Shown piece after piece: positions 8,467-63,735 of a DNA stretch of 64,000 bases. The first letter of the stretch is position 1. Every line of letters starts with the position of its first letter. The notes under the pieces are model-generated. The model was not told where the DNA came from and searched no databases. It saw only the letters and a program-made list of their open reading frames with translations. The stretch is from an uncultured delta proteobacterium (GTDB lineage: Bacteria; Desulfobacterota; Binatia; Binatales; Binataceae), in the NCBI GenBank assembly GCA_963724765.1, contig CAVRVY010000002.1:224001-288000 (forward strand). The letters are read 5' to 3'. The position numbers were made by a program, and so were the translations under genes.

Positions 8467-11169
8467 CTATGGAACACAGACCCAGATGTTGTTCAGCCCG
8501 TTAACCCACGCTCCGGTCTTGGCGCCCGCGCTCGTACAAGCCACCGGCGGATTCGCTGGCGGGTCGCAATCGACGCAGTAGCGACGCGCGCCGTTCGTCA
8601 CGCTGCCCGGCAGGTCGGCAAACTTCACGCCCAAGTCCTGGCCGCCCAGGCTTTCGTTCAGCCACCATGACTTTCCCGCGTTAGTGGGAGCGAGACCGCT
8701 GGCCTGGATCACGTCGCGCACCTCGACCGGCGACGATGGAGCGGCGATCACGTCGAGCAGCTCGGCCGGACTTCCGCCGCTGAACAGAGTACCTTTGACT
8801 AAGAATGGCGCGCCGCCGCTGATTGCGAGATAGGCGTTGCCGGTCGCGCCGCTGGTCAGTTGGCCGCCGTTGATGACGATCGGCGCATAGGCGCCGCCGG
8901 AATAGACGGCCGCAATCTCGTTGGGCGCGTTATCCTCAATGTCCAATTCAGGGCTGTCTAGCAGCGCCTGAGCATCGGAAAAGTATAGGGGCGCGACTGC
9001 GTATCCCCGGTCAGTGAAGTCGGGCATTATATAGTGTCCTGAGCCCGTGACCTGGCCGACGCAGGAGTATTGCCCGTCACACTGCAGATGGTCGTAGAGG
9101 TTGTTGTTCGACTGATTGCCGAAGAAAAACCCGACGCTGGTTAAGGTTTTGGGGACGACTACGCACCAGACGCGCCGCACCGTGTCCTGAAAGTCGTTAT
9201 TCGCGAGGTTGATGCAGGTGCGCCCGGCCGTGCCGTTTTCCGCAATGTTCTCGATCGTCGAGTTCAGCATCCAGGTCGCCCAGATGCCGTTGTCGTTCAG
9301 CGAAAGATTACTGATCGTAACCGGGTTGAGGTCGGCCGCGCCGTTGCTGGTTTCGATCGGGATGAAAGTATTAGCCGAATTGTCTACTACGCCTTCGATC
9401 GTCCCCGTGGGCGTGCCGGTTGGGAAGTTCTCCAGAAAGACCGTGTTCCCGTCGCCAACGAACTTTGCCGTTGGCGCGGTAAAGTGTGACGTATAGCGCG
9501 CAACACTGGAGATGCGGATCGAGTCATAAAAAGCTGGCATCAGTGGGGTGTTATATCCAGAGCCCAGGTAAACGCTCGACCCCTGACTAGCGAGCATGAA
9601 GCTCGAATAGGGCGGAATCGTGAGAGTACCCGAAGCCGACGCCGACCCTACCTGTGTGCCGTCAACAAAAAGCCGCACCGTCGTCCCGTCGTAGCTCAGC
9701 GCGACGTGATGAATCTTATTGATGGTTAGACTGTCGGCGGAACCCGACCCGTTCACCGTGACTATTGAACCACCGATATCTACAGAGGCGTGCAGGCAGT
9801 TGGATGAGCAACCGGAAGGAGCGCCGTTGGTCCCGAACCCGAGAGCGTTAACGCCGGAAGCCTCGGGCTGGTCCTGCGTAATAGTCAGAAAGCTGAAGTT
9901 GTCGTAACCACCACCATCGCTGAAGAACGGCTCAATATAGAACTCGAAGGTGAAGGCGGCGAGGCCATTCAAGCTGGTTTCGAAGTTGGCCGCATTCATG
10001 ATCTCGACAGTCGCGTTGTTCGAGCCATATCCCGCGCCGTTGAAGAACTCGCCATCGGCTACGTCGAGGCTGCCGCCAGTGCCGGTCGCGATTGCCTTAT
10101 TGCCACCAGTCGTCGCCAGCGCCCACACGCACGTTCCGTCGTTGACCGTGTTGGGTTGCGAGGTCGGCCAAACGGGCGTCGAACTCCCCGAAGTGCAGCC
10201 GTTGCCGCTGTTGGAGTAGGTCTGGACTTCGATATTGCCGTTGGAATCAACGATGTCAGAAGTGCCGCCGGTGCCAGATGGATACGAGCCGAAATGATGG
10301 TTCGCCTGCCAGGTGACCGTCACACTGGTGCTGAGTGGTGGCTTCCATCCCGTCTCGGCTTCCTGCGCAATAATCGCCGGGCCATTATAGTTCTGTTTGA
10401 TCTGAGTCTGTTGCCAGCCCGCGCCCTCAAACCTAATCGAACAGTTGATCAGGATCGGCGAGGTCGTCTTGTAGTACAGCCCGCCCGGCGTCGCCGGCAG
10501 ATAGACTTCCGGCTTGTTCGAACCGGATGCGCCGCATGCCGCATTGATCGCCGCCTGGATCGCCGCGGTGTCGTCGGTCGAGCCGTCGCCCTTGGCCAGG
10601 TAGGGCGGAGCCTTGACGTTGATCACGCCGTTGACGTTGCCGTTGATGTTCGCGCTCTCGTCGATCGCGACATATGGCGCCGCCGTTCCATTACTCACTT
10701 GCACGCCGGTGCCGGGCCTGAGCAGCTCGCGCCAGTTCGTGTCACCGGTGTTCTCGGTTTCGACCGGGCCGTTGGCCGCCTGCAGGCTCAGCACACCGAG
10801 GACGTTATGGCCGTTGGCGTTGAGGTCCTGCTCGAGCGCGCCGGCCGCGCAGGCCCAGGCCCCGCGCGAGCCCATCGCCCACGCGCCGGCCCCGCCGGCG
10901 CTGCACGGCGACGTGGCCTGGCAATCCTTGCACCACAACAGCAGTCCGTCCTGCTCCGCGGGCAGGCTCGCGAACGACAGGCCGGCGAACTGCGGCGAGA
11001 TCGGCTCGGCGCCGGATAAGCGCTGATTGATCGCCTGGCGGAAGTTGTAGCCTGCGCCGATGCCGGTGAAGTTCGGAATCGGCTGGTATTGCGCCGCCGC
11101 CGCTCCGGCGATCGCGGCCAGTATCAGGAGTGAGCCGAGGAGCGTTTTCGATAACGATTTATACATCAT
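8467..11169 (-). CDS. Putative receptor-binding/tailspike-like protein (signal peptide, pectate-lyase-3-like start, CBM-like insert, LamG-like domain, beta-helix)
   Basis: MYKSLSK+hydrophobic+AAA signal; INVKAPPYLAKGDGSTDDTAAIQAAINAA; HHVALSYDGTTVRLFVDG...DSIRISSVARY; last gene of the tail operon. Confidence 0.7.
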   Translation of the reverse strand: MMYKSLSKTLLGSLLILAAIAGAAAAQYQPIPNFTGIGAGYNFRQAINQRLSGAEPISPQFAGLSFASLPAEQDGLLLWCKDCQATSPCSAGGAGAWAMGSRGAWACAAGALEQDLNANGHNVLGVLSLQAANGPVETENTGDTNWRELLRPGTGVQVSNGTAAPYVAIDESANINGNVNGVINVKAPPYLAKGDGSTDDTAAIQAAINAACGASGSNKPEVYLPATPGGLYYKTTSPILINCSIRFEGAGWQQTQIKQNYNGPAIIAQEAETGWKPPLSTSVTVTWQANHHFGSYPSGTGGTSDIVDSNGNIEVQTYSNSGNGCTSGSSTPVWPTSQPNTVNDGTCVWALATTGGNKAIATGTGGSLDVADGEFFNGAGYGSNNATVEIMNAANFETSLNGLAAFTFEFYIEPFFSDGGGYDNFSFLTITQDQPEASGVNALGFGTNGAPSGCSSNCLHASVDIGGSIVTVNGSGSADSLTINKIHHVALSYDGTTVRLFVDGTQVGSASASGTLTIPPYSSFMLASQGSSVYLGSGYNTPLMPAFYDSIRISSVARYTSHFTAPTAKFVGDGNTVFLENFPTGTPTGTIEGVVDNSANTFIPIETSNGAADLNPVTISNLSLNDNGIWATWMLNSTIENIAENGTAGRTCINLANNDFQDTVRRVWCVVVPKTLTSVGFFFGNQSNNNLYDHLQCDGQYSCVGQVTGSGHYIMPDFTDRGYAVAPLYFSDAQALLDSPELDIEDNAPNEIAAVYSGGAYAPIVINGGQLTSGATGNAYLAISGGAPFLVKGTLFSGGSPAELLDVIAAPSSPVEVRDVIQASGLAPTNAGKSWWLNESLGGQDLGVKFADLPGSVTNGARRYCVDCDPPANPPVACTSAGAKTGAWVNGLNNIWVCVP

Positions 11170-11178
11170 GTGAATCCG

Positions 11179-11757
11179 TCAAAATCCGATTGCCAGCCAG
11201 GAGAACCCGTTACTCTGCTCGCTTACCAGACCAGCGCGCTGCATCAGGACTCCCGGAACGTCGAGCACGAAGGTCGCGCCGGACGCGCTGTAGCTGATAA
11301 CTGACGCCGCGGTATTGCCGCCTCCGGTGCTATAATAGACATTAGTCGCCAGCGGCGGCAGCAGGATTGCGTTGGGAAACGGGATCGGCCAGGTTACCGT
11401 GAATTGCGTGTCGTTGGGAATGCTCTCTTGAGCCAGTGCGTAGTAGCCCCACTGGATAATCGCGATCGATGAACCGCGGCTCACGTCGGTCAGCGGAATT
11501 TTCAGATAGCCCGCGGTCTTGAGCGACCCGGTGAAGCCGGCGACGAAGCTTTGCAGGGCCCCGATGTTCGCGATGTTGGTGTTCTGCCGCCCGTAAAGAA
11601 ACGCTGTGCGGTTGGCGAGTTGTTGATGGGGTTCGTTACTCACTCCGATACCGCTGAAGCTCGCGCCGGTGCCCGCACCCTCGACCGGGTCGGTTTGCTG
11701 AATCTCGTAAATCTCGTTGGCGGTAAATTCCGGACTATCGATAAGCGTGGCCATCAT
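11179..11757 (-). CDS. Short tail-fibre protein
   Basis: IYEIQQTDPVEG...GVSNEPHQQLANRTAFL fibre N-terminus; GYLKIP...IIQWG...VTWPIPFPNA...FSWLAIGF gp53-like C-terminus. Confidence 0.8.
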   Translation of the reverse strand: MMATLIDSPEFTANEIYEIQQTDPVEGAGTGASFSGIGVSNEPHQQLANRTAFLYGRQNTNIANIGALQSFVAGFTGSLKTAGYLKIPLTDVSRGSSIAIIQWGYYALAQESIPNDTQFTVTWPIPFPNAILLPPLATNVYYSTGGGNTAASVISYSASGATFVLDVPGVLMQRAGLVSEQSNGFSWLAIGF

Positions 11758-11762
11758 TCACC

Positions 11763-12416
11763 TCAGAACGTGAAGGTCCAGGTGCCCTGGTAATTCGCCG
11801 TGCCATTGAAGACGAAGCCCGGCACCACCGCGTGCGCCAGCATCGGAGCCGGCGCCGTATGCAGCGCGACCAGCGTCCAGACCAGGGTGCCGTCGCTGGT
11901 GGTGGCGCCGAGCGCCGTCGCCCAGGTCGGCGCCGTCGAGCCGCTGGTGCCCGCCGTCGTGCAGCGCTGAATATTGCCGTTGGCGTCGACGATCAAATTG
12001 CCGGCGGTCCAGGCCGTCGACCCCGCCCAGGCCGGATTCGCCGTGCCGATCGCGGATGGCATCGCGGCGCCCGCGCCGTTGGCGAACAGGCCCACCTCCT
12101 GCACGGTCATCCCGAGCGCTCCGTAGTCGGCGGTCGCCGAGAGCGCGTAGTTGAACTGCACGCTGCCGGAGCTGGGAAAAGTATGCGCGCCCACTGCGTT
12201 GTAGTATTTCGGCGCGGCGCCCAGATCGGTGTCATTCACGGTGGGCGCGGTGCTGCTGGAGCCGAAGCCGACCGCCAGTGCGTATTGGCCGGTTGTAACC
12301 CCCGCCATCAGGCTGGCCAGCGCCGGCAGCCCCGCGTTGACGAACAGATTGCGGCACTCCCACATCAGCGCGCCGCGCCTGAAGATTCTGACTATTCCCT
12401 GTGGCCGTTTCATCAT
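11763..12416 (-). CDS. Tail/baseplate-associated protein with CBM-like insert
   Basis: NLFVNAG...VGFGSSSTAPTVNDTDL...QEVGLF...WTFTF pattern; lies between gpI and the fibre gene. Confidence 0.7.
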   Translation of the reverse strand: MMKRPQGIVRIFRRGALMWECRNLFVNAGLPALASLMAGVTTGQYALAVGFGSSSTAPTVNDTDLGAAPKYYNAVGAHTFPSSGSVQFNYALSATADYGALGMTVQEVGLFANGAGAAMPSAIGTANPAWAGSTAWTAGNLIVDANGNIQRCTTAGTSGSTAPTWATALGATTSDGTLVWTLVALHTAPAPMLAHAVVPGFVFNGTANYQGTWTFTF

Positions 12417-12421
12417 TTGCT

Positions 12422-13249
12422 TTACCCATCTGCCGAAATAGGCACTCCGTTGGCGACCACCCCCGAGTCGGCTACTGCCGGTTCGTTGGCGCCGTATGTT
12501 ATCCCGATATGGTAGTAATGCCGATTGTATACCGGTGCGATCACTCGCTGGTCCGCCAGCGGCGCCAGTGGCGCAGTCAGCAGGTCACTCGGTGCGGGTG
12601 CGTTGTCGACCGCGCCGGTGAAGTCCCCCGGCGCCGGCGCCACGTCGCCCAGTGGCGCCGCCTCGAACACCAACGCGTCGAGCCAGCTTCGCGCCGGCTT
12701 GAAAAAATTTACCGCGGCGACGATCCGTGTCGCATCGTTCGCGCCCACCGTCTGTCCGGCTTCTAGACTCACCATCACGCGAAATACCGCCCAACCCTCT
12801 GAAGACGGCCATGCGCTGCCGCCCCAGCTCGCCTGTCCTTCCAGGAAGCTGACGCTGGTCCAGCCCAGCGAGCCCAGCGCCTGGCTTATCGAAGAGGGTG
12901 TGCCATGCACGCGATGCAGTGGAATGGCGGTTTGCAGCAGCGCTCGCCACGTATCGAAGTCGGTCGGCCCCGCGCTGCTCGACGACGACAACAACGTATC
13001 GACATCGGTCAGCGTGTCGATGTCGGTCAGCGCGTCGATGCTCTCGCCCGAGGTGCTCGCCGCTAGCTGCCACTGCGGATCGAGCATGTCGAATTGCCAG
13101 GCCAGGAAGGTCAGCGCTGAGTCGGGTGCCGAGTCGAGGCGGTAGACCAGCAATGGCGTGAGATCGAGCGCGTCGAGCCGTTCGATGGTTGCCAACAGCG
13201 ATTGCGAACGCAGGTCGTCTATCGACGGCGGTATTTGGAGTTGCGCCAT
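12422..13249 (-). CDS. Baseplate wedge protein, P2 gpI-like
   Basis: DSALTFLAWQFD, AIPLHRVHGTP..I..AL, WAVFRV and KPARS motifs. Confidence 0.85.
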   Translation of the reverse strand: MAQLQIPPSIDDLRSQSLLATIERLDALDLTPLLVYRLDSAPDSALTFLAWQFDMLDPQWQLAASTSGESIDALTDIDTLTDVDTLLSSSSSAGPTDFDTWRALLQTAIPLHRVHGTPSSISQALGSLGWTSVSFLEGQASWGGSAWPSSEGWAVFRVMVSLEAGQTVGANDATRIVAAVNFFKPARSWLDALVFEAAPLGDVAPAPGDFTGAVDNAPAPSDLLTAPLAPLADQRVIAPVYNRHYYHIGITYGANEPAVADSGVVANGVPISADG

Positions 13250-13500
13250 TAATCCACCAGCAATCCCGGCGCCGCCGCCCGGTCATGCCCCCCGCGTTCG
13301 CCGTTGCCGCGCTTCTCCGGCGCGCAATACATGTGCGGTTCCGGCGCAGGTATCGGCTTGGCCGTGTCGAACCGCGCGATTAGCTCGTCGGCCTCCGCCG
13401 CGCTGCGCTTGTGGTCAGCGATGAGATGCGCGCGCACCGCGTCCGCGATGCACAACGCGCCCCGGCAAAGCGGGCAGAACTGCGTGGCCGGCGCGCCCAT
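13249..13500 (-). CDS. Small C2H2 zinc-finger-like protein
   Basis: FCPLC...HLIADH; its ATG overlaps the gpJ stop (TGATG) and its stop overlaps the gpI start (TAATG). Confidence 0.6.
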   Translation of the reverse strand: MGAPATQFCPLCRGALCIADAVRAHLIADHKRSAAEADELIARFDTAKPIPAPEPHMYCAPEKRGNGERGGHDRAAAPGLLVD

Positions 13501-14669
13501 CACGAATGCTCCGAGGCGATCGCCTGCGCCAGTGTGATCGCGGTGCAGTTGGCCCATTGCCCGGCGGTGAGTTGCGTATAGGACGGCTGCGTCAGCACCA
13601 CCTGGTAGACGCCGGGGACCGATAGCGCCGCCACGATTTCGCTCGGCACGATGTCGCGCTGGATGCGTGCGGCCAGGTTGAGCGCGATGTCCTGTGCGGC
13701 GGTGTTGACCGCGGCCATGGTCGAGATCGGTTCGGCGTCGGCGAACAGTGTGACCGTGCCTGTGATCTGGTAGTCGATTTCGCTCACTGCCAGTGCGCTC
13801 ACCGTGTCGGTCAACGGCCGCACGTTATCGGCCCCAAGCGCCTGCTGCACCTGCGCGAGCAGCGCGGAATTTGCCACCCCCGCGCTGTTGGGCGAAGCGG
13901 CCGGCTGCGCCGCGATTGGCCCGGTCAGGATGTAAACCTGGACCGTGCCGGGCGCGGGTGAGACCACGGCGACGTCGATAATCGAGGGATCTACGCCGAG
14001 TGCGAAGAAGCGGTACGCGCCCGTCGGACCGGCCACGCTGAACTGATTGGGCGCGGCCTGGATGCGGGTGCGCAGATGGTCGTCGGTCTCGGGCGCCGAG
14101 CCGCCGCCGGTCGTGACGGTGTTGGTCACAGAAGCGATCAGCACGTTGGGATTGAGCAGCACGCTGACCTGGCCGGGAAGATAGCCGTTGGCATTCGGGC
14201 CCGCCGTGATGCAGGTCGCCGTGGTGCTCGCGACCGTCGTCGCGGCCGGCACGATGAGATCGGCGCCAGTCGCGAAAACGAACTCGCCATCGGCGGTGCC
14301 GGCCTGCGTGCCGGCCGGGATCGTATATGCCAGCGTGAGCGCGTTTTGCAGCGTGAACTGCAGCGTCGTCACTGCACCCTGCGCGCCGAGCCGGCTCACT
14401 CCGAGCAACTGCCCCAGGTAATCGATCATCGGAAAGACCGCGAAGGCGAGCAGGTTCTGCTGTCCGGCGTATTGGATCGCGTTGCGGACCAGAGACTCAC
14501 GGTAAGCGTACAGGTTGATCAGCAGGCGCTCCACCTGCGCTGGTTGCAAAGTGCGGCCGGCGGCGGTCTGGAAGGCCGTTATCATGTCGGCCAAAATCAG
14601 GTTGGGATTAAGCCCGTCGGCGTCATTGACGAATGTCGGTGGCGGCAGATTTGATATTCCGGCTCCCAT
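13500..14669 (-). CDS. Baseplate J-like protein
   Basis: AYRESLVR, QNLLAFA, ETDDHLRTRI, FSVAGPTGAYRFFAL and VRPLTDTV. Confidence 0.93.
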   Translation of the reverse strand: MGAGISNLPPPTFVNDADGLNPNLILADMITAFQTAAGRTLQPAQVERLLINLYAYRESLVRNAIQYAGQQNLLAFAVFPMIDYLGQLLGVSRLGAQGAVTTLQFTLQNALTLAYTIPAGTQAGTADGEFVFATGADLIVPAATTVASTTATCITAGPNANGYLPGQVSVLLNPNVLIASVTNTVTTGGGSAPETDDHLRTRIQAAPNQFSVAGPTGAYRFFALGVDPSIIDVAVVSPAPGTVQVYILTGPIAAQPAASPNSAGVANSALLAQVQQALGADNVRPLTDTVSALAVSEIDYQITGTVTLFADAEPISTMAAVNTAAQDIALNLAARIQRDIVPSEIVAALSVPGVYQVVLTQPSYTQLTAGQWANCTAITLAQAIASEHS

Positions 14670-14746
14670 CTGGCTTCCCTTCGCGATTTGCGCGCACGAT
14701 TCGCGCGTGTCCCCAACTTACTATCCTTATTTGCTAGCTCGACCTG

Positions 14747-15190
14747 CTATGCTGGCTGGCCCGCGCTCGCCGTTGTGACCGTCGTGTTCTGCGCCGGGCT
14801 CGGCGCGGTGCCGAGGTTGAGCTGCCACGACACCGTTATCTCGACGTGCGCTCCCGGTTGCGCCGCGACATCCAACAGCGGCGTGGTCGTGACCGAGAGC
14901 AGCTTCACACGGGGCTCCCACTGAGTAATCGCTTGAGTAACTTCGCGGACCACGGCCGGCCCCGCTTCGCTAATCGGTGCATCGATATATTTCCAGAAGT
15001 CGACGCCGAAAGTTGGACGCAGCACGTCAGTGCCTTTGGGCGTGGTCAAAATGATCGCGATACACTGGTCGACATCGGCGACCCCGGTGACCACGTTGCC
15101 GATTCCCGACCCCGGCTGTCCCGGCGTATCGAGCATCAGCGACCAATCCGCCGACGTGATATCCGCAAGTGTGATTGCTCCGGCCGGCAT
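14747..15190 (-). CDS. Baseplate gpW/gp25-like protein
   Basis: DVDQCIAIILTTPKGT..LRPTFG..YID.P...AITQWEPRVKL. Confidence 0.92.
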   Translation of the reverse strand: MPAGAITLADITSADWSLMLDTPGQPGSGIGNVVTGVADVDQCIAIILTTPKGTDVLRPTFGVDFWKYIDAPISEAGPAVVREVTQAITQWEPRVKLLSVTTTPLLDVAAQPGAHVEITVSWQLNLGTAPSPAQNTTVTTASAGQPA

Positions 15191-15264
15191 CTATGCGGCG
15201 CTCCTTCCGAAGCCCCTCCCCAAGACATAGGGACGGGGCTGCAGAATTGTCGAATCAAATGCGC

Positions 15265-15804
15265 TCATGACATCTGCTGGGTCGGCGGCGCCGAGTTTCC
15301 ACCTTGCGGGTCTGAATGGGTATGCCCGTTATAGGTGTTGATAATTCCGTCCACCGAGTCGTTATGCGCCGAGGTGATCAGGTTGATTCCGCTTGCGGCG
15401 TGGACGGTGACATTGCCGCTGTTATCGATCGCAATCGACGCGCCGTTGGCGCTGAGGTTCATTGTCGCTCCGTTGGGCAGGCTCACGGCAAGCGCATGCG
15501 CGGCGCGGTCGTACTCGACGCTCGCGCCGTCTTTGAACGAGATGTGGTATTTGTCAGCGCTCTGTACCGGCGGCGTGTCGGCGCTCGAATATATCGCTCC
15601 CATCACCGCGCCCGCCTCGTCGTGTTCATCCATCACGCATACTACCTGCTCTCCAATATCCGGTACCCAGTAACCTTTGTCGTTCTGCGTTTTTGGAAAA
15701 AGGATCGGTAGCCAGTACGAGAGCATCTGGTCGCGATCCGGAAATACGACTCGCACCCGGGCGCCCTGAAGGTCTTGCTGTTTCACCAGGCCTACGCGAA
15801 ACAT
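15265..15804 (-). CDS. Baseplate spike protein gpV-like
   Basis: RVRVVFPD..SYWLP..WVPDIGEQV..GAIYS..F.DGA.VEYD; C-terminal HTH metal-binding tip motif (NGHTHSD). Confidence 0.92.
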   Translation of the reverse strand: MFRVGLVKQQDLQGARVRVVFPDRDQMLSYWLPILFPKTQNDKGYWVPDIGEQVVCVMDEHDEAGAVMGAIYSSADTPPVQSADKYHISFKDGASVEYDRAAHALAVSLPNGATMNLSANGASIAIDNSGNVTVHAASGINLITSAHNDSVDGIINTYNGHTHSDPQGGNSAPPTQQMS

Positions 15805-15869
15805 GGATGCCGCCTCCTTCACCCCAGGGTTCGAAATCTCGCGTCACGCGTTTATGGTTCGGCGCCGCG

Positions 15870-55406: not shown

Positions 55407-55412
55407 CGCAGG

Positions 55413-55458: not shown

Positions 55459-55510
55459 GGCGAGTATGCTGGACTTGACTCCAACCCCGCCGTGCGCTAA
55501 GTTAATTTTC

Positions 55511-56416
55511 ATGAGCAACACCCCCGAACCGAAAATCACGCGTCAGATGACGCTTGCGGAGTTTGACCGGCTGTTCCCGAACGAGGACGCCTGCAAGACC
55601 TACCTGGTCGCCAGCAGGTGGCCGAAGGCTGTCAGTTGCCCGCGCTGCGGCAACGAAAAGGTCTGGGCGCTCAAAACCCGCCCGTTCAATTGGGTCTGCA
55701 AGAAATGCGGCGATACGCCCTATCGGTTCTCCGTGCTGGTCGGAACCATCTTTGAAAACACGAATTACAAACTGCTCGTGTGGTTCAAGGTTCTGTACCT
55801 GATGCTCACCAGCAAGAAGGGCATCAGCGCGCTTCAGATTCACCGCATGATCGGATCTGGCTCGTACCGCACGGCATGGTTTATGTGCCATCGGTTGCGC
55901 GCCGGTCTGGCCGATCCTGATTTCCGCAAGCTGATGGGAATCGTCGAAGTAGACGAAACCTACATCGGTGGTTTGAACCGCAATCGCCACTGGAATAAGA
56001 AACAGCCGGGGCGCGGCCCGTCCGGTAAGACTACAGTCATCGGCGCGATCTCCCGCAAAGGCAATGTGGTTTGCAAAATCATCGAAGATACTTCGATGGA
56101 GACTATGAGCCGCTTTGTCCGCAGCGCCGTGTCCGACAAGGTTAGCTTGGTCGCAACCGATGAAGGCGCGGGATACCAAAAGCTTCATCAGGCATTCAAG
56201 CACGACACCGTGGATCACAAAGCACACGAATATGTGCGCGGCGAAGTGCATACCAACAATATCGAATCGTTCTGGTCGCTGCTCAAGCGTGGCGTAATCG
56301 GCACCTACCACAACGTCAGTAAGAAGTATCTGCCGCTGTACTTGAATGAGTTTCAGTTCCGCCACAACAATCGCAAGAATCCCGATATCTTCGGGGCGGC
56401 GGTAAGAGGATGCTGA
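55511..56416 (+). CDS. IS1595-family DDE transposase
   Basis: CPRC/CKKC, VEVDETYIGG, ATDE and HTNNIESFWS; TTGACT-N17-TAAGTT-N7-ATG. Confidence 0.95.
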   Translation: MSNTPEPKITRQMTLAEFDRLFPNEDACKTYLVASRWPKAVSCPRCGNEKVWALKTRPFNWVCKKCGDTPYRFSVLVGTIFENTNYKLLVWFKVLYLMLTSKKGISALQIHRMIGSGSYRTAWFMCHRLRAGLADPDFRKLMGIVEVDETYIGGLNRNRHWNKKQPGRGPSGKTTVIGAISRKGNVVCKIIEDTSMETMSRFVRSAVSDKVSLVATDEGAGYQKLHQAFKHDTVDHKAHEYVRGEVHTNNIESFWSLLKRGVIGTYHNVSKKYLPLYLNEFQFRHNNRKNPDIFGAAVRGC

Positions 56417-56622
56417 AGCGTCCGAACTGGCGGATGCTTCTGCATCACGCGTCCAGTAGGCCGGTTCAATTGAAGTTGAAATTCTAAGAGGCTGCATGAG
56501 ACGATCTAATGCCCAAACAAATCAAACAGACCCCGCCACAACCCGTCCCTGTCAAATCACCACCGCCGCTGACAATTCCGCCGAACAAGACTTCGATACA
56601 CACTCAAGAAAGTCCGCCGCCA

Positions 56623-57246
56623 CTAAGACATCCACCCCACAAAGAAGTGAAGAAAGGCGGTTAGCTGCGGGCCAGCACCCAAACTCCAAATCTCAACTAA
56701 AGGCGGGATGAGCACGACGACCAACCCCGCCAGCAGAAGATAATGGCTCCAACGAACATACAACGCTTTTCCAAGATTGATCTGGTCTGCCGACTTGACC
56801 GCGCGGTACATGGCAATGAGATAAAATCGCCTCAATTGATCGGGGAAATCCAAGAAATCCTCAGCAAACCAAGTGTCCTTTTCTTGGATGCCCTCAAAGA
56901 TTCGAACGCGGAAGGCGAGAACCGCAAGCCCTGCGGCAACCATCAGCATGATAAGTCCAAGGAATATAAATATTCCGCCTCCAGTAACCTCGGTTATCAA
57001 TCCTTTCCAGTACGAAAAGGTCGAAATTAGAAGAGCGACAATGCCACCCACGAAACTGGCGGACAGTTGGGCTTTCGAATCAAGCACATCCGTTATCTTG
57101 TTTGTCTGTTCGAGCAGCAAAGAACCGAAATCGTACAGGACTGGTGTGCTTTCTTTGTTCGAGTGGCGGGTAAGTCTACAGAGCACCTCTCTCTCTCCTG
57201 GCACCGGCGTTCCGTTTGAATGTTGTTCCGTCAAAAGGCTTTCCAT
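56623..57246 (-). CDS. 3-TM protein resembling the Pycsar effector (PycTM) fold
   Basis: LDSKA+TM+TM...N.GKA..V..S+TM; homolog at 60053-60667. Confidence 0.6.
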   Translation of the reverse strand: MESLLTEQHSNGTPVPGEREVLCRLTRHSNKESTPVLYDFGSLLLEQTNKITDVLDSKAQLSASFVGGIVALLISTFSYWKGLITEVTGGGIFIFLGLIMLMVAAGLAVLAFRVRIFEGIQEKDTWFAEDFLDFPDQLRRFYLIAMYRAVKSADQINLGKALYVRWSHYLLLAGLVVVLIPPLVEIWSLGAGPQLTAFLHFFVGWMS

Positions 57247-57362
57247 CGGTTTTATGACCTCACTTCAATCACGACCCGATCTTAATCGACATGCAATATA
57301 AGTTTATCAAACAGGGTAGGCGTGCCTGAAGATGCTTCCTGTCTGCTCTTGTGGAGGCCGTT

Positions 57363-57521
57363 ATGTCTAAGGAAGGCGAGGCCAAAAAGAAGATCATTCA
57401 CTTCTACTGCCACACCTGTAAGGCATACGAACTGAAAACCAGTCCGCACTATCGCGCTCAGAAGGTGCGCTTCGCAAAGCGGCGCAAGGCGGAAAAGGCG
57501 CAAGCAGAAATGCCGAAATGA
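57363..57521 (+). CDS. Small basic CxxC protein, 52 aa (IS cargo; not in the ORF track)
   Basis: GGAGG RBS; MSKEGEAKKKIIHFYCHTCKAYELKTSPHYRAQKVRFAKRRKAEKAQAEMPK; ATGA overlap with the next gene. Confidence 0.72.
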   Translation: MSKEGEAKKKIIHFYCHTCKAYELKTSPHYRAQKVRFAKRRKAEKAQAEMPK

Positions 57522-58369
57522 AGCATTCATCGATTCTGATTGCAGCAACAGTTCTGCTCCTAGCCGCCGCAAACAGTAGAGTGCCAAGCGGTCCACAACA
57601 AACACCCCAAAGCGAAGCAACAACCAAAGATAGCAACGGCAGCAGCCGTCCAAGGCGAGTTGCCGCTCAGAATGAGCCAACAATAAACAGCGCCGCTCCC
57701 CATAGCGACCACGACACCTATAACTATTACGGCGACCTCAAGTATGTTTCCTATAATTCCGCACTCAAGGGCTTCTGGGCTAAAATTGGGCAAATAGCAG
57801 ACGCAATTTCGGCGGTATTGATAGCCTTTTTTACGGGGGCTCTGCTGTGGCTCACCAGAATGCAGTTTGTTGCCGAACACCGGCCAAGGATGCGGCTCCG
57901 TAGAGTGAAATTGTTGACCGATATCTCTAATCCCGACGATTGGATCGACACGACCCTTGAATTTGAGTTGCTGATTACAAATCAAGGCGGGACTAAGGCA
58001 ATGTTCACTAGCAGCAATATAGCCATCGGCATAGGTCGGAGGACTGAACCAGACCCGACGACATTGTTTACCATTGAGCCCGCAAATATCCTCAAAGGAT
58101 ATAAATTGAATCCAGGGGTCGAGTACACCCACAAATTCACTGCCAATAAATGTCAGTCTTTGTTGGATATCTTGGTCAGAATGAGAGTTCGGAATGATAT
58201 GTTCCTTTATGTTGTAGGAGACTTCTGGTATCGAGATCGCCTGAGACAACGGTATTACAAGACGGCTTTTTGTAGACGCCTGACCGAAGGTGAGAAAGTT
58301 TTGAACATACAAAAGACGCTCCCGCGATTTATTGTCGTGAACAACCCCGAATATGAGTACGCCGACTAA
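57518..58369 (+). CDS. Exported/TM protein with beta-rich domain (IS cargo)
   Basis: Signal-like N-terminus, TM AISAVLIAFFTGALLW, EHRPRM, ITNQGGTKA and YVVGDFWYRD. Confidence 0.72.
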   Translation: MKHSSILIAATVLLLAAANSRVPSGPQQTPQSEATTKDSNGSSRPRRVAAQNEPTINSAAPHSDHDTYNYYGDLKYVSYNSALKGFWAKIGQIADAISAVLIAFFTGALLWLTRMQFVAEHRPRMRLRRVKLLTDISNPDDWIDTTLEFELLITNQGGTKAMFTSSNIAIGIGRRTEPDPTTLFTIEPANILKGYKLNPGVEYTHKFTANKCQSLLDILVRMRVRNDMFLYVVGDFWYRDRLRQRYYKTAFCRRLTEGEKVLNIQKTLPRFIVVNNPEYEYAD

Positions 58370-58623
58370 AATCAGGGCCAGCGCCAGCGGCCACGCTACG
58401 TAGCCCGCTTGATGCGGGCATCTTAACGGCGGATCGTCGCCCCCGTCCGACGAACCCCCTGAGTCAGAATCCGGCCTGTCCCTGCCTACGGTAGGCGAAC
58501 CGGACATTGGAGTCAAGTTCAGCATACTCGCCAAATATTTCACCCATAGCCTTGCGCAAGGCGGCGCTTCGCACGCTCTGCATCGTGGCAGCCAAAGCGA
58601 AACAGCTACCCCCGCAAATCCGA

Positions 58624-58791
58624 CCGCCGGGGTCGGCCGGATTATAGACGTAGCCGCCCTCGTCGCTGAGCAGCCGGGCGATCGCGCGCTCGAAGGCCGA
58701 CGGATAGTTTTGTGTTTGCGTGCTGTCTTGCGGGTCCATCGCAGGCGGGATTCTCGCAGTCCCGCCGGCTACGCATAAGGGTAAAATATTT
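58624..58791 (-). repeat. Diverged duplicate of endolysin 5' end plus promoter (copy of 55291-55458)
   Basis: Encodes MDPQDSTQTQNYPSAFERAIARLLSDEGGYVYNPADPGG and then breaks; 58533-58626 likewise duplicates 61646-61739. Confidence 0.93.
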
Positions 58792-59031
58792 AGGGATGAT
58801 TCACTTGACGAAGGGATATGGGTTTGCTAGTATCCCCTAAATGCAGCGGTTCACTTCTTCTTTTTGGCCTCGTCTTCAAGCTCTCTGCGGCGCTTGTCCG
58901 CTTGCTCGGCTAGGGTCTTTCGTATCGAGCGCACAAGGTCTTGCGTTGGCACTTTCTCGATATTGGGCGTGCGCGGTTCGTCTGTCTGTTTACGGCTCGG
59001 CTTTGACATATCCCCGCTCCGGAGAATCGTT

Positions 59032-59916
59032 ATGAATCTGTCCGCCATCAACCATCTGTTTTCGACTAAAGAACAGTGTCGCGAACTGCTCAAGCGGCTG
59101 CGTTGGCCCAAAGACGTTAGCTGCCCGCGTTGTAATCACGACGCCGTTTGTTGGCTCAACACTCAGGAAAAATTTGAATGCTCTAAGTGTTCCTATCAGT
59201 TCAGCGTCACTGCTGGGACCATTTTTCACGATTCCCATTTGCCGCTCGAAAAATGGTTCTTCGCTACCTTCCTCATGTGCGAGGCCAAGAAGGGCATCTC
59301 GGCTCGCCAGATGCATCGGATGCTTGGCGTCGGTTCTTACAAAACCGCCTGGTATCTCTGCCATCGCATACGCGCCGCGATGAAAGAGGAATTGCCCGCG
59401 CGGCTCAAGGGCGTTATCGAGGCTGACGAAACCTATGTCGGCGGACGCGCGCGCGGCGCTGGCAAAGGCCACTATCACGATACCAAGGCAATCATTCTTG
59501 GGGCAGTCCAGCGCGGCGGCCCGATCCGTCTCAAGGTCGCGAACGACAATCGCAAAGCAACCTTGCACGAATTCATCCGGAGTAACGTTGATCCAGAAAG
59601 TAAGCTCTACACTGACGAATGGCCCGGCTATAACGATCTTCCTAATCGCGAGACCGTCAATCACCGCGCGAAGGAATACGTGCGCGCCGATGTCCATACC
59701 AACTCGGTTGAGTCTGTATGGAGCTTGTTCAAACGCTCGATTGTCGGTCCGTATCATCATCTGAGCGAGAAACATATGCAGTCGTACTTGGATGAAATCA
59801 GCTTCCGGTTTAACCGTCGCAAGAGCGATGAATTGTTCATCGAGACTTTGCGCGCATTGGTACAAACGCCAGCATTAACGTTTAGCCGTCTGACGCGCGA
59901 GCAGGTGGCTGTTTAA
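59032..59916 (+). CDS. IS1595-family DDE transposase (divergent from elements 1-3)
   Basis: CPRC/CSKC, IEADETYVGG, YTDE, HTNSVESVWS and YLDE..FRFNRR. Confidence 0.95.
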   Translation: MNLSAINHLFSTKEQCRELLKRLRWPKDVSCPRCNHDAVCWLNTQEKFECSKCSYQFSVTAGTIFHDSHLPLEKWFFATFLMCEAKKGISARQMHRMLGVGSYKTAWYLCHRIRAAMKEELPARLKGVIEADETYVGGRARGAGKGHYHDTKAIILGAVQRGGPIRLKVANDNRKATLHEFIRSNVDPESKLYTDEWPGYNDLPNRETVNHRAKEYVRADVHTNSVESVWSLFKRSIVGPYHHLSEKHMQSYLDEISFRFNRRKSDELFIETLRALVQTPALTFSRLTREQVAV

Positions 59917-60052
59917 GTTATCTGGTGCTGATTTTTCCTTCATAGGGGGATTCTTGATGGCTAATGACGATCAATCAAAATCTACCGGTACCGGTAGCAC
60001 TGGCTCTTCTGGCTCCAACCAAAGTGGTGGTGGCGAATCATCACAAAAACCA

Positions 60053-60667
60053 TCATTGCATCCTTCCCGCGATGCCAAGCCTCGGCCAAACATTGCCATT
60101 AAGAGCAACCAAGGTGGGAACGTGAAAAAATAGAGTTAGTACGTGCACGACCAATCCACCAGCTAGAAATGCTGCTGCGAAGAGCAGCAAACGTTGACTG
60201 GATAGCAGGAGCCTGCCCTTCTGCTCGGCTAAAGCATTTTGCGATTTGCGCACTCCGTGCCAACAGCGAATATGGAAGCGCTTCAATTCGTCTCCATTGA
60301 CTAGCGCGCTTTTCTCAAACCAATCTGCATCACTCGGACATTCCCATGCGTAACGCGCGCGCAACGCCCGATACGCCTGGATCGCTGCAAATAAGGCGCA
60401 GAGAGCGCCCAGCACGATAAATCCTAGGCTTAACGTAACACTATGGGGAGGATCAAGAAGAAAAGCTAAGACCGCAGTGGACCAGCCAAGAACCATCGCC
60501 GCTTTGGAATCAATTTGGCTACTGCGCTGCTGAACTTCTGCCATTAACATTTGTCCGAACGATGCCAATTCGTCAGTCACTCCCTCCTCTTCATATGAAT
60601 AGACAAGTTCTTGTACTTCCTCACTAGAGAGGTCGTTCTGCTGAACAGTAAATCTAGCCATCATCAA
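60053..60667 (-). CDS. 3-TM protein resembling the Pycsar effector (PycTM) fold
   Basis: QIDSKA+TM+TM..WF....L.RF...KG..L..S+TM. Confidence 0.6.
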   Translation of the reverse strand: MMMARFTVQQNDLSSEEVQELVYSYEEEGVTDELASFGQMLMAEVQQRSSQIDSKAAMVLGWSTAVLAFLLDPPHSVTLSLGFIVLGALCALFAAIQAYRALRARYAWECPSDADWFEKSALVNGDELKRFHIRCWHGVRKSQNALAEQKGRLLLSSQRLLLFAAAFLAGGLVVHVLTLFFHVPTLVALNGNVWPRLGIAGRMQ

Positions 60668-60673
60668 GCTCCC

Positions 60674-61567
60674 TTAAAATGCCTCAACTTCGCCGCTTAA
60701 CGCTTTCAAAACTAAAGGTAGCGAAGGTGTCGTTTCTTTTAGCTCGCAGGCCATGGCTGTTATCGCACTTTTACAAACGTCGAAGAGAACTAGGGCCTTG
60801 TCTTCGTCCAAATTGTCTTCAGGGTGAATAATAGGATTCCTGTGCATCTCTCTAATCTGGTCAATGAGGGCAATAGTCTTGACGTCTGGCCTCAGAGTCT
60901 TGTTTGGATCGTTGGCACATTTGGTCAAAATCTTTGTATAAGCTCCCCAATTGCGCATCTTCGGTTTTGGTTTAGTGCCGACAAAGCGCTCATAGTAGAT
61001 ACGCAAGACAGCATCTGTCGCGCGAAGAATGTGAAAGCCAGTGGCGGTGAACAGATCGAATGCGAGGCATTTGCCAGCTTGTCGAAAATCATTGACAGCT
61101 TGACCTGAAATTTCAGCGCGCAGACTAGCTGACAAAGCATTTTCGGCACGTTCAATCAGATCGGCTGTGGAGTATATACCTTTTTTTGAAACCGTATATG
61201 TATCCGCCGTACTTAACTCAGCGGACAATACGGTCTGAAATTCACTAATGGCATCGCGCACATAATACGATGCCATGACGTCTAGTGTCGGCGGGTCGGT
61301 TTCGTTCGTACCTTTGTCAATGGCTTGGCGTATAATTTTGGTGGCTTCGGCGTTTTGTTCGTTGACCAACTCCTTGAGCTTAAGCGTAGTTGCACGAACG
61401 ACCTGAAGGGTCAGCGCCTCTACCTTGAGAAGAGCGCTCAACCAACGAGACGCATTGAAATAATCATAAGTCAAATCCTGAAGCGGGGTGCCGCTCTCAG
61501 ACTTTAGCCCCAGCGCACGAATAATCGCCCCACCCTCGTAGAAGAAAAATGAATTTAGACGCTCCAA
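60674..61567 (-). CDS. HEPN-like (DUF4145-type) protein; start inferred at TTG 61567
   Basis: AGKCLAFD..TA.GFHILRATDAVLR and RNPIIH (RxxxxH). Confidence 0.65.
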   Translation of the reverse strand: MERLNSFFFYEGGAIIRALGLKSESGTPLQDLTYDYFNASRWLSALLKVEALTLQVVRATTLKLKELVNEQNAEATKIIRQAIDKGTNETDPPTLDVMASYYVRDAISEFQTVLSAELSTADTYTVSKKGIYSTADLIERAENALSASLRAEISGQAVNDFRQAGKCLAFDLFTATGFHILRATDAVLRIYYERFVGTKPKPKMRNWGAYTKILTKCANDPNKTLRPDVKTIALIDQIREMHRNPIIHPEDNLDEDKALVLFDVCKSAITAMACELKETTPSLPLVLKALSGEVEAF

Positions 61568-61784
61568 TTTACTTTCCCCCAAAGGCACTATGGCCCATTG
61601 GGCAGCATACGGTTCGGTTGTCCCTTCGTCAAGTGAATCATCTCGAGATTTTTCACCCATAGCCTTGCACAAGGCGGCGCTTCGCACGCTCTGCGTCGTG
61701 GCAGCCGAAGCGAAACAGCTACCCGCGCAAATCCGACCGGCGATTGCGATCAGCGATTGAAGGACCGCGCGCTGCTGCGATTCG

Positions 61785-62126
61785 TCAAACCGAGCGCGGG
61801 TCCGCGCAAATCTCGCGGCGTGCGTCGGCCAGCACCTGGAATACGCGCCGGCGCGTGCAGCTCAGCGTGCGCGCGATCTCCTCGACGCTGCGGCCCGCGG
61901 CGCGCAGCGCCAGAATCTGCGTGCGGCGCGGCGGCGGCTTGGGCAACTCCACTCGCTCGCCGCCAAACATCTCGGCCAGCTTCATTGCCGCTCCCGTGCC
62001 GACCGCGCGCGCCAGGGCGTCGTTGGCGCTCGGGCTATGCGGGACATACAGGCGGGTACCTCCGAAGCTGGCGATCAGCTTGGCGGCCGCTTCTTCGCCT
62101 ATGATCTCGACGATGAACCCCAGCAT
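61785..62126 (-). CDS. Mor/C-family late transcription activator
   Basis: IGEEAAAKL...FGGTRLYVP, a second GGERVELP and C-terminal HTH (RSVEEIARTL..TRRRV.QVL); GGAGG RBS. Confidence 0.85.
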   Translation of the reverse strand: MLGFIVEIIGEEAAAKLIASFGGTRLYVPHSPSANDALARAVGTGAAMKLAEMFGGERVELPKPPPRRTQILALRAAGRSVEEIARTLSCTRRRVFQVLADARREICADPRSV

Positions 62127-62416
62127 GGATATCTACCTCCCCCGGGTTTCGCTTCGCCTGCGGCTCCGCGCCATCCTCTTCCGCCACCTTTGGCAGTGCG
62201 AAATGGTCCTCTTTGATGGGCTGTGCTTCGACCGTCCGCTCGCGCCGCCCAGCGACGGCCGCGAAAGGTTCGGATTGAAGCGGAAATGTTCCAGATTGTG
62301 ACAGCGGCGTTACAGTCGGAGCGCGCGGATGAGATGCCGCCGCATTGCGACGAGCGTCGACAAATTGGCGCGCGACGCCATCGAATTGTCGCTCCGATCG
62401 GCATACGCATAAGGTC

Positions 62417-62776
62417 TCAGGCGGCTTGCGCGGGTTTGTGTGCCGCCGCGGTTAGCTCGTGCGCGATACGGTCGAGCAGCCCGGCGAAGTCGGCGTCGGC
62501 CAGCCGGCGGCGCGCGACCACGTTGCAGGCGTGGATGACGCTGGTGTGATCGCGCGCGAAAGCCATGCCGATACGAGGAAATGAGGCCGCCTGGCGCCGC
62601 CGTCCCATCCATCCGCCGCCTGCCAGCTCGCGGCTGAGATACATCGCCACCTGGCGCGCACCGGCGACGCGATGGCGGCGCTTACGCGAGAGCATCTCGC
62701 TGATATTGAGGCAAAACGCACGCGCCACGGCGTGCTGGACATCGGCGATCGATATGCAACCGGGACGGTCTTCCAT
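62417..62776 (-). CDS. Stand-alone DnaA C-terminal (domain IV) DNA-binding protein
   Basis: I.DVQ.AVA..F......MLSRKR...VA.ARQVAMYLSREL...SFPRIG..F.RDHTSVIHA; GGAGGA RBS. Confidence 0.85.
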   Translation of the reverse strand: MEDRPGCISIADVQHAVARAFCLNISEMLSRKRRHRVAGARQVAMYLSRELAGGGWMGRRRQAASFPRIGMAFARDHTSVIHACNVVARRRLADADFAGLLDRIAHELTAAAHKPAQAA

Positions 62777-62819
62777 TGCAACGGTCCTCCTGTCATTGGC
62801 GCGCCTGGCGCATGGCGCG

Positions 62820-62964
62820 AACACTTGTTGGATAATGCGAGGCACGCTAATTGCGTATTCCGGGTGATCGAGTCGTGAATTGGGAATCCATGGCCGGCGC
62901 TGCGCGCCGTGCGCGCGCGTAGTATCGGACAGACCGCGCTGGCGGTGAGGATTTAACACTTGTT
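62820..62964. promoter_or_regulatory. Two AACACTTGTT dyads, candidate repressor operators
   Basis: Identical 10-mers at 62820-62829 and 62955-62964 in the divergent promoter region. Confidence 0.45.
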
Positions 62965-63078
62965 TGAAGATCGAGACCGAAAAGCTTTGTGCGGGCGACG
63001 AAAATAGCCCATAAAAATGGTTCAACGAGCGAATCCAGCAAACATAGCCACGGGCATTTATCCCACAGTGGGAGGAAG

Positions 63079-63735
63079 ATGTCAACTACAGTAGGAGAAG
63101 AGGAGTTCCGCCGGCGTCTGCGCCTGATCATGCAACAGTTTGGATCGGTCGCGGATCTCGCGCGGGCTGTCGGAGTATCGGACAACGCCATCTACAAATG
63201 GGTTTCCGGCCGCGGGCAGCCAAGTATGATCAGTCTCGTTAATCTGGCGCGTGCCGCGCGGGTCTCGATCGAGTGGCTGGCGACCGGACAAGACGCCCCC
63301 AAGGGCGAAGTGCGGGGAGCGGAATCCGGCGAGTACGTATATCTGCCGCGCAACTCGGTGCGCAGCTCAGTTGGCCGGGGTACTGTGCAGAGCCACCAGA
63401 TTGTCGACTACCTGGCGCTCAAGGCTGAATGGCTGCGGCGCCGTATCAATATCGATCCGAAGAGCCTGATGCTGATCGAGGCGGTGAGCGACTCGATGAC
63501 GCCCACGATCGAAGAGGGCGATCTGGCGCTGGTTGACTTGCGGGATCCGCGTTTTCGTCATGACGGAGTTTACGTACTGCGGACGGGCGGAGATCTGTCG
63601 ATCAAGCGTATCCAGCGCCGCCCCGACGGCAAGCTGATCATCCGCAACGACAACGCCGCCTATGAGCCGACGGTCGTGACCGCCGACAGCGTCAATGTCG
63701 TGGGTCATGTAATATGGATCGCTGGACGGCTGTGA
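63079..63735 (+). CDS. CI-like repressor (HTH + S24 peptidase)
   Basis: SVADLARAVGVS..AIYKW..G...P, VSIEWLATG, DSMTPTI.EGD and IKRIQ; GGAGG RBS. Confidence 0.92.
   Translation: MSTTVGEEEFRRRLRLIMQQFGSVADLARAVGVSDNAIYKWVSGRGQPSMISLVNLARAARVSIEWLATGQDAPKGEVRGAESGEYVYLPRNSVRSSVGRGTVQSHQIVDYLALKAEWLRRRINIDPKSLMLIEAVSDSMTPTIEEGDLALVDLRDPRFRHDGVYVLRTGGDLSIKRIQRRPDGKLIIRNDNAAYEPTVVTADSVNVVGHVIWIAGRL

Follow-up and report, generated by a model that had tools for sequence, protein, structure and literature searches.

The window analysed here is a 64,000-nucleotide (nt) stretch of DNA from an uncultured soil delta proteobacterium of the family Binataceae (GenBank assembly GCA_963724765.1, contig CAVRVY010000002.1, positions 224,001 to 288,000; G000:C2:224001-288000 in our numbering), whose 5.4-Mb genome is assembled in four contigs; the family is placed in Candidatus Binatota, a phylum that has no cultured members. 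The window holds the late genes of a myovirus of the BcepMu/Mu type, laid out as two collinear minus-strand blocks, half 1 (8467-26546) and half 2 (47814-55406), with a short regulatory end to the right of half 2; we refer to these genes together as the element. Pfam and PHROG scans over about 75 open reading frames (ORFs) of the window, with some small ORFs outside the scan, agree with a preliminary description of this DNA in the Mu-type particle parts that it named and the coordinates that it gave them, apart from the gene models corrected below, and the Pfam matches bear out the roughly 21 kb with gltA, trpF, a ligase, dacA and glgP that part the two blocks.

In the order of transcription, half 1 opens with the Mu I-type head protease/scaffold (384 amino acids (aa), 25392-26546, start corrected to 26546; PF10123, E 4e-74), followed by a 243-aa gene (24603-25334; GC content at third codon positions (GC3) 0.89) that gives no match in the Pfam search and whose stop codon is kept in 8/8 genomes (TAG in seven, TGA in G012), and by the 314-aa major capsid protein of the Mu gpT family (T; 23599-24543), which PF10124 matches over its full length (E 1e-93) and whose start codon is also kept in 8/8 genomes. 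The preliminary call of a capsid thus stands as to the presence of gpT, but not as to its gene model: the 483-aa "capsid fusion" ORF is a frame artefact and was dropped in favour of T and the separate 243-aa gene. Head-tail connectors of the Mu gp36 (23051-23500) and gp37 (22212-23048) types, matched by PF07030 and PF09646, lead into the contractile sheath (20431-22161) and tail tube (19849-20370), matched by PF04985, PF04984 and PF17482 and sharing 79-95% and 88-97% identity, respectively, with 7/7 relatives, and then into a tail assembly chaperone (19407-19766; weak PF10109 match) and a 487-aa tape measure (17830-19293), which is assigned from its position, finds no match in the Pfam search and is 45-59% identical in relatives. 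The baseplate/hub module that follows (13500-17810) is collinear with BcepMu gp45-gp50 and comprises gpU-like (17181-17810), X (16927-17184), gpD-like hub (15870-16877), V spike (15265-15822), gp25/W (14747-15190) and baseplate J (13500-14669) genes, with PF04865, PF04965, PF04717, PF05954, PF05489 and PF06995 as its Pfam set. Beyond J lie a 102-aa ORF (13249-13557), a P2 gpI-like baseplate protein (12422-13249), a 217-aa virion protein (11763-12416) and a gp53-like C-terminal fibre protein (11179-11757); the matches in this segment are PF21882 and PF09684, for the gp53-like and gpI-like genes, and BcepMu gp51, and all genes of this segment are kept in 7/7 relatives in the genus, with the exception of the 102-aa ORF (6/7). 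The last gene encodes a 900-aa tail fibre (8467-11169) with pectate-lyase-like and ConA-like lectin domains (PF12708, PF13385), one of the element's most diverged proteins (58-72% aa identity in five genus relatives, 45% in G012).

A stretch of 50-80 aa recurs at 38-55% identity in the sheath, the gp37 C-terminus, the 217-aa protein and the 243-aa protein, and may represent a shared surface-exposed beta domain; the C-terminal beta-rich domain of the 243-aa protein resembles the stretches of sheath and gp37, and this protein is possibly a candidate decoration protein. At the other end of half 1, a 536-aa ORF (6795-8405) between an mscS-like gene and the fibre finds no match in the family search and is unmatched by tblastn in five genus relatives and further fetched regions, where 2.8-4.6 kb of other sequence is found instead; the fibre-distal end of the element is variable.

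Half 2 begins with a GH108-type endolysin (lys; 54873-55406, start corrected to 55406) and continues through a transmembrane (TM) protein (54134-54724), an Rz-like protein (53709-54110), a lipobox protein (within 53041-53715) and a 95-aa holin candidate with two TM segments (52808-53095), to genes like BcepMu gp25 (52476-52811) and gp26 (52087-52407), each by a BcepMu match, the small-terminase-like Mu gp27 (51139-51837; PF11985), the large terminase TerL (49307-50839; phrog_2) and the Mu portal (47814-49229; PF06074). TerL is 57% identical to BcepMu gp28, 90-95% identical in ten species of the genus and 79% in G012. Matches to phrog_436, phrog_214 and phrog_315 fall in the region 52087-55406, where hydropathy and GC3 were also used to call genes, while several lysis-region ORFs, and a 206-aa gene of the host block described below, find no family match in the Pfam and PHROG scans. 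To the right lie a 113-aa Mor/C-family transcription activator (61785-62126, minus strand; PF08765, 40.9 bits), which sits between repressor and lys family-wide; a 119-aa DnaA C-terminal-like helix-turn-helix (HTH) protein (62417-62776, minus strand; PF08299, E 8e-20), which is the sole gene between repressor and Mor, as had been stated; and a divergent CI/LexA-like repressor with HTH_3 and S24 peptidase domains (62989-63735, plus strand; PF01381, PF00717), 70-89% identical in relatives. Plus-strand ORFs at 52425-53000 and 61744-62301 are shadows of minus-strand genes; with the 483-aa ORF, "u185" and "u191" make up the three ORFs dropped as artefacts or shadow frames. A 45-nt repeat, with copies 67-91% alike, occupies intergenic sites in half 2 and the host block (33999-34043, 44327-44371, 51000-51044, 51836-51880 and 54733-54777).

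The two halves share a control motif. A palindrome, GGGTGAAATATTTCACCC, precedes the start codons of I and lys by 38 and 39 nt, respectively, and both genes begin ATGGAC. The I copy, GGGTGAAAATATTTCACCC (26585-26603), carries one extra A relative to the consensus, and lys retains a proximal half palindrome, AAATATTTCACCC on the minus strand (55446-55458), with the other half at 58533-58548; the lys motif is intact in G001, G009, G012, G014 and G016. Before I the motif is conserved in the genus and shows small changes in most of the family loci examined, in split and unsplit elements alike, and a scan of 22 regions places it, in most of them, before lys, I or both, with both copies present in ten elements when copies split by insertion sequences (ISs) are counted. 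Genome-wide, it occurs only at the lys and I sites besides one match inside a glyoxalase-like coding sequence, which we rejected as a third palindrome locus. Unsplit elements run from the portal stop through 60-90 nt to the palindrome, and from there through about 40 nt to I; in the window's genus, most of eight genomes have GC-rich hairpins after the portal stop, and in species without an IS at the junction the palindrome lies roughly 40-100 nt past the gltA terminator. The late promoters of Mu lie before lys and before I and are activated by the Mor-related protein C via a dyad site, and Mu starts its I late operon where the split falls here; by analogy, we propose that Mor acts at the palindrome. 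Since lys and I are preceded by the same palindrome, the break coincides with an operon boundary and one regulator should be able to act on both halves, and a host block lying between two transcription units would leave their control coupled, since each unit keeps its own copy of the motif. A break at an operon boundary with a motif copy on each side offers a concrete rule for how such genes can disperse without losing co-regulation.

The early operon of BcepMu (gp2-gp16, with transposase gp9 and ATPase gp8) is wholly missing from the element. The strongest argument for loss of mobility is one of space: nothing but the 119-aa gene and Mor separates the repressor from the late genes, and the DDE transposase and transposition ATPase that Mu- and BcepMu-like phages carry in an early operon beside the repressor are not found there. 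Among 39 family loci examined, the repressor-to-lys distance is 0.9-2.7 kb in 20/20 loci in which all three genes were detected (2.7 kb in G012), and the regulatory end reads the same family-wide (repressor, sometimes the HTH gene, Mor, then lys), so that the transposition module would have been lost before about 17 genera diverged. Among the scanned ORFs of the window, some small ones lying outside the scan, Pfam gives no match for gin, mom, an integrase or a Mu transposase, in agreement with what had been described. The MuA domains PF02914 and PF09299 find no match in the whole genome, and MuA none in five genus genomes searched; PF02914 matches 3/81 family genomes, none of them in the window's genus and each on a contig other than that of TerL, and these matches serve as a positive control that the search is sensitive to such genes. 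The BcepMu transposase finds no match in the genome or in the 81 family genomes, in a search that had no positive control. The three matches are MuA-type DDE_2 transposases with open frames of 725-809 aa (G087:C16, G072:C41 and G070:C5; L087-L089), and Mu-like phages able to transpose are probably still in circulation among these bacteria.

The F protein finds no match in relatives, nor does BcepMu gp31, and the only F (PF04233) and GemA homologues in this genome lie in a second, rearranged Mu/BcepMu-like remnant on contig C1 (~459900-469300), which holds TerL (69%), gp27, a gp26-like gene, GemA and a lys-like stretch, with a C-terminal portal fragment and F on the opposite strand. Its TerL belongs to a separate lineage, with genus g27, G020 and the second copy in G048 (G048b), its neighbours differ, and it has no match at its identity level in the other 15 genus genomes searched; it looks like a truly decaying prophage, in contrast to the conserved element. 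We rejected the C1 F gene as a trans-acting part of the element, as it belongs to a rearranged remnant of the other TerL lineage that is unmatched in those 15 genomes.

Between the halves lies a block of host genes (27843-47661) identified by Pfam, with gltA, a VTT/DedA-like gene, trpF (PRAI), an ATP-dependent ligase, a hydrolase, a GT2-methyltransferase, dacA, a broken IS1595-family element, two DUF3443 genes, DUF2844, a glgP-like gene and the 206-aa gene. We fetched 60-100 kb around the matches in seven other species of the genus and mapped the window proteins onto them, and find the whole layout in five (G001, G005, G012, G014 and G016), from glnA, mscS and the fibre-to-I block through gltA, VTT, ligase, GT2-methyltransferase, dacA, DUF3443/DUF2844 and the 206-aa gene to portal-lys, Mor, HTH, repressor and the same right-hand host genes. 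Halves are thus joined by host genes, and by the same ones, in 5/7 species examined; in the other two (G009 and G013) the halves are on separate contigs with the same host neighbours. Orthologs therefore stand at the loci beside glnA-mscS and gltA where the preliminary description proposed to look, the neighbours are the same in 7/7 relatives, and the random-site insertion of a Mu-like phage is not what is found. The same layout in five species shows that the split is older than these species and no assembly error. Genome-specific rearrangement mediated by an IS was rejected as the cause of the split, as the IS beside I is species-specific and the split genus-wide. A search of five relatives returns only ~32% paralogues of gltA. 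The DUF3443 paralogues (39542-41017 and 44560-46238), one of them beside DUF2844, are 71% identical in their DNA where 40796-41093 aligns with 45730-46027, a sign of an old local duplication.

Elsewhere in the family the portal/I junction ranges from unsplit to widely split. In clade g26/g29/g31/g33 the junction is unsplit, with I less than 400 bp after the portal stop; the portal-to-I gap is below 400 bp in eight unsplit loci and below 330 bp in seven of a second set, which may overlap the first. Junction inserts measure 2.9 kb in G053, 5-8 kb in G018, G063, G077 and others, about 10-17 kb in G103, G105 and G055, and 13-25 kb in the window's genus, and in 14 further loci I is not within the 6-8 kb fetched beyond the portal. 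Insert content differs between genera. The 5-kb insert of G018 (genus g3; L033:9289-13677), for example, encodes a methyltransferase, a Kelch-repeat protein and a 446-aa ORF and is unrelated to gltA-glgP. Inserts occur in the window's genus, g3 and a large clade and are lacking in clade g26/g29/g31/g33, and the split may or may not have a single origin. Half 2 has further inserts, of 24 kb between the gp25-like/holin genes and Mor in G005 and of 15 kb between the gp25-like/holin genes and the remaining lysis genes in G016. Unsplit, lightly split and widely split versions in related genera offer a view of a stepwise passage from prophage to a dispersed host "organelle".

Within the genus, the capsid is matched at 83-96% identity in 11/16 other species and TerL at 79-95% in 11/16. 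Over the seven species with fetched regions, 218/231 gene-by-genome cells of the element were found and 190 are intact, where intact means a single alignment of at least 80% cover without a stop; for nine host flank genes, 54/63 cells were found and 44 are intact. Apparent frameshifts affect the element no more often than they affect essential host genes, and are probably assembly indels. Ratios of nonsynonymous to synonymous divergence (dN/dS), taken as NG86 pairwise estimates over eight species, are far below 1 for element genes, as the preliminary description had proposed to check. Medians are 0.055 for the tube, 0.089 for the capsid, 0.09 for J, 0.10 for the sheath, 0.12 for the repressor, 0.14 for the portal, 0.145 for TerL, 0.18 for the HTH protein and 0.20 for Mor, with the tape measure (0.49) and the 102-aa ORF (0.40) highest; the remaining values are 0.155 for the 243-aa gene, 0.23 for I, 0.33 for gp27, 0.09-0.18 over the baseplate/hub module, 0.12-0.31 over 52087-55406 and 0.19 for the fibre, whose synonymous divergence (dS) is 1.3. 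The median over 22 element genes is 0.14, and over ten host flank genes 0.16. On average, dS comes to 0.67 in the element and 0.54 in the host genes, and the two are correlated (r = 0.86 over 28 non-independent species pairs); the dS between species rules out that the relatives are near-clonal.

Element and host trees agree within the genus and across the family, another of the checks that had been proposed. In the genus, trees of concatenated host genes, half 1 and half 2 all recover (G001,G009) and (G013,G016) as groups, with terminal branches of almost the same length. Of 34 related TerL loci, all but one are titled as Candidatus Binataceae, delta proteobacterium or proteobacterium metagenome-assembled genomes, the exception being a Cypionkella contig with 44% identity that carries F between portal and I. 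TerL at 64% identity or more is found in 50/80 family genomes, nearly always as a single copy, and is present or absent by whole genera (e.g., 5/5, 4/4 and 4/4 against 0/5, 0/5 and 0/4). The TerL and transposase tallies include five unpublished genomes (G049, G073, G089, G101 and G075), all with a TerL match; without them TerL is found in 45/75, genus g34 rests on three of them, and none is in any tree. On a 50-row TerL tree, genus labels require 21 changes against a minimum of 20, with a shuffle mean of 39.1 and 0/200 shuffles as low, and the element occurs in about 17 genera once the separate TerL lineage (g27, G020, the second G048 copy and C1) is set aside. Trees of rpoB and TerL over 33 genomes have 19/30 splits in common, against an average of 0.17 and never more than 2 in 1000 label shuffles; among splits with support of at least 95, none in the TerL tree contradicts one in the rpoB tree. 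These comparisons strongly support vertical inheritance of the element for as long as the ~17 genera have diverged.

The window also holds four IS1595-family transposase genes, which the preliminary description does not mention. One is divergent from I and its copy is specific to this species (26682-27755, plus strand; PF12762, PF12760), and one is broken (within 37809-39372; ORF with Pfam matches 38737-39372). The other two lie between Mor and lys (55379-56416 and 58864-59916), each with two passenger ORFs, in two tandem low-GC units, together about 6.2 kb (55459-61646; GC ~0.51), that each sit in a palindrome copy, with a duplicated ~270-bp piece of the Mor-lys spacer between them. Passengers of the first unit are multi-TM proteins of 207 and 327 aa, those of the second a 204-aa protein with two TM segments and a soluble 337-aa protein, and none matches a Pfam or PHROG family. 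Insertion is at the palindrome centre with AAATATTT duplicated; the usual IS1595 target duplication is 8 bp. Palindrome/IS junctions lie at window positions 55443-55484, 58507-58548, 58776-58816 and 61621-61661. Short contigs from runs X1 and X6, maybe from the same sample as the assembly, match the lys/IS junction exactly; none bridges the portal/host junction. A clean insertion before I is seen in G013 (positions 25561 and 27720 in the 80-kb joined stretch L028-L031), non-orthologous copies (59-66% identity) precede I in G001 and G013, copies stand beside the lys motif in G005, G013 and G014, and no IS lies between gltA and I in G005, G009, G012, G014 and G016. This looks like an IS lineage specialised on the control motif, and motif-targeting IS1595 elements would point to a parasite of a domesticated system. 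As a speculation, IS affinity for the motif might also explain the foreign DNA at the portal/I junction.

The explanation that we consider probable is that the element is a vertically inherited, domesticated derivative of a BcepMu/Mu-type myovirus, which has kept the genes needed for a DNA-filled head, a contractile tail and lysis and has lost the transposition-replication module, F and G. Domestication in itself, that is, a host-retained, non-mobile Mu-type derivative encoding a packaging head, contractile tail and lysis, is well supported, and each computational check run on the earlier proposal of a host-retained, contractile-tailed, Mu-derived DNA-packaging particle came out in its favour. 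As in a gene transfer agent (GTA), phage-like head and tail genes lie in the host chromosome, replication, integration and transposition genes are absent, and inheritance is vertical under purifying selection. Such a system would comprise two late operons, one leading from lys past the terminase to the portal, the other starting at the I protease and taking in capsid, tail and, last, the fibres. DNA damage would lead to self-cleavage of the S24 repressor, a short leftward transcript with the DnaA_C-like HTH gene and then Mor would be expressed, and the Mor-family activator, or another palindrome-binding factor, would turn on both operons in trans. Terminase would then fill heads with chromosomal DNA, a natural reading given that no element genome is replicated and that TerL, gp27 and portal are as constrained as the tail; tails would attach, and holin, endolysin and spanin would release the particles. 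Particle production, packaging of host DNA and its delivery to other cells, i.e., GTA function, are inferences here. In this genome the loci cover 55 kb, and the head of Mu takes up ~37-39 kb of DNA, an indirect hint that the particle would package less than encodes it.

Several observations weigh against this interpretation. Capsid and TerL matches are each lacking in 5/16 genus genomes, several of which are incomplete; G005 (96% complete) has no endolysin match anywhere in its assembly, and in G007 (94% complete) neither lys nor TerL is found. In G018 the element lies among genes that map elsewhere in the present genome, so that the locus is conserved within the genus and not family-wide. 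F and G, which stand between portal and I in Mu- and BcepMu-like phages, are missing there family-wide; the BcepMu record annotates F as a minor head protein/DNA pilot and G as a neck/tail-completion protein, so that the particles may be assembled or deliver DNA in another way, or less well. In the present genome two IS units split two tandem copies of the lys motif and leave half a palindrome at lys, so that this genome's own system may be impaired and its output reduced, although all element genes remain open, and the extra A in the I palindrome is a candidate homopolymer sequencing error. The relatives are, by title, all metagenome-assembled, with frameshifts even in essential host genes, and no RNA runs are listed that hold element sequence, with no support from viromes either. 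The present gene data also fit transfer and PBSX-like killing alike.

The last point defines the contender that survives best, which we nonetheless regard as unlikely: the same particle, filled with host DNA, would act as a PBSX-type bacteriocin in killing or competing with related strains, or in altruistic lysis. A contractile tail, lysis cassette and repressor with an S24 cleavage domain suit such a role, as do a fibre that is among the most diverged proteins and the loss of F, labelled the DNA pilot in the BcepMu record; constraint on terminase, portal and gp27 like that on tail genes (dN/dS 0.14-0.33) would be odd if the packaged DNA were irrelevant, and yet PBSX also keeps packaging genes. 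We consider very unlikely a still-mobile phage or helper-dependent satellite, supplied with transposase in trans by another Mu-like phage and selected at the phage level. MuA-type transposases in 3/81 family genomes, the second Mu-like TerL lineage in circulation (g27, G020, G048b and the C1 remnant) and the different locus in G018 are what such an element might leave, but species of the genus share both the locus and its host-gene split, the element trees follow those of the host, nearly all genomes carry a single copy, MuA is unmatched in five genus genomes, and the 55-kb span exceeds the capacity of a Mu head. That the element is a non-functional prophage relic, simply decaying, we find scarcely credible: IS insertions in or near it, the missing early genes and F/G, the lost lysis cassette of G005 and the undetected half 2 of G007 could be read in this way, but about 30 genes remain open at dS of ~0.3-1.0 with dN/dS of 0.05-0.33, like host genes, and a true relic, that on C1, is rearranged, truncated and, at its identity level, unmatched in the other 15 genus genomes searched. 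An artefact of assembly or binning that joined two pieces of one prophage around host DNA, as might be suspected of metagenome-assembled genomes with IS copies at junctions and as the preliminary description had allowed for, is as good as dismissed by the same split and neighbours in five separate assemblies of different species and by IS copies in the window that, at only 40-77% alike, are unable to confuse an assembler.

Domestication of a BcepMu/Mu-type myovirus, the explanation that we prefer, can be extended to a bolder proposal that we hold to be quite improbable as a whole. In it, the element would be an independent GTA family, the first from a transposable Mu/BcepMu-type myovirus, kept across ~17 Binataceae genera; the portal/I junction would be a hot spot that repeatedly captures host blocks (2.9 to ~25 kb), gltA-glgP would be preferentially exported cargo if packaging runs one way from the repressor end, and the IS1595 lineage would be specialised on the palindrome. 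In Mu, packaging is by headful and in one direction, beginning near the repressor end. If the proposal is true, preferential export of captured host genes would amount to a built-in lateral-transduction device. Independent domestication of a DNA-packaging particle is known from no more than a handful of cases, and to our knowledge none is from a transposable Mu-type phage or from Binatota. Our search of the full-text literature found no paper on a Mu-derived GTA or on such an element in Binatia, and the available part of PMC7947584 holds no passage relevant to Mu-type GTAs. The small, defined gene set, two operons and Mor, makes particle formation and DNA content testable by heterologous expression despite the uncultured host.

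Comparison with known systems sets out what is shared and what differs. The nearest sequenced phage is BcepMu, a Burkholderia phage of Bcepmuvirus (57% identity in TerL, 45% in sheath), with which the element is collinear over gp25-gp51, and the element carries the head and packaging families of Mu together with Mor/C (PF11985, PF06074, PF10123, PF10124, PF07030, PF09646 and PF08765); it differs from both phages in having no transposase, MuB-like ATPase, GemA or other early genes and neither F nor G, in a locus that is fixed, inherited and cut by host genes, and in a repressor with an S24 cleavage domain. R-type tailocins (pyocins) are domesticated contractile tails with a lysis cassette and a cleavable repressor and have no capsid, portal or terminase, whereas the element keeps all three under purifying selection and so is not a tailocin. 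PBSX of Bacillus has heads, contractile tails, terminase, lysis genes and repressor control at a fixed, contiguous locus, and is a killing particle. For its control, the available part of PMC8987985 refers to Xre. The element likewise encodes heads, a contractile tail, terminase, lysis and repressor control at a fixed locus, a likeness that here is one of genes; it differs from PBSX in its ancestry, in its split at an operon boundary and in its conservation across many genera. RcGTA, of Alphaproteobacteria, has a short, non-contractile tail and is controlled by the host CtrA/GafA circuit. The element resembles RcGTA, as far as the available parts of PMC5026251 and PMC8987985 describe it, in having phage structural genes but none for replication, spread over more than one locus, inherited vertically under purifying selection and co-diverging with the host. 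It is distinguished from RcGTA by head genes that all fall in Mu-specific Pfam families and a nearest phage, BcepMu, a kinship judged without RcGTA proteins in the comparison, and by its contractile tail, its control by a phage-type repressor and Mor, and its host phylum, Binatota.

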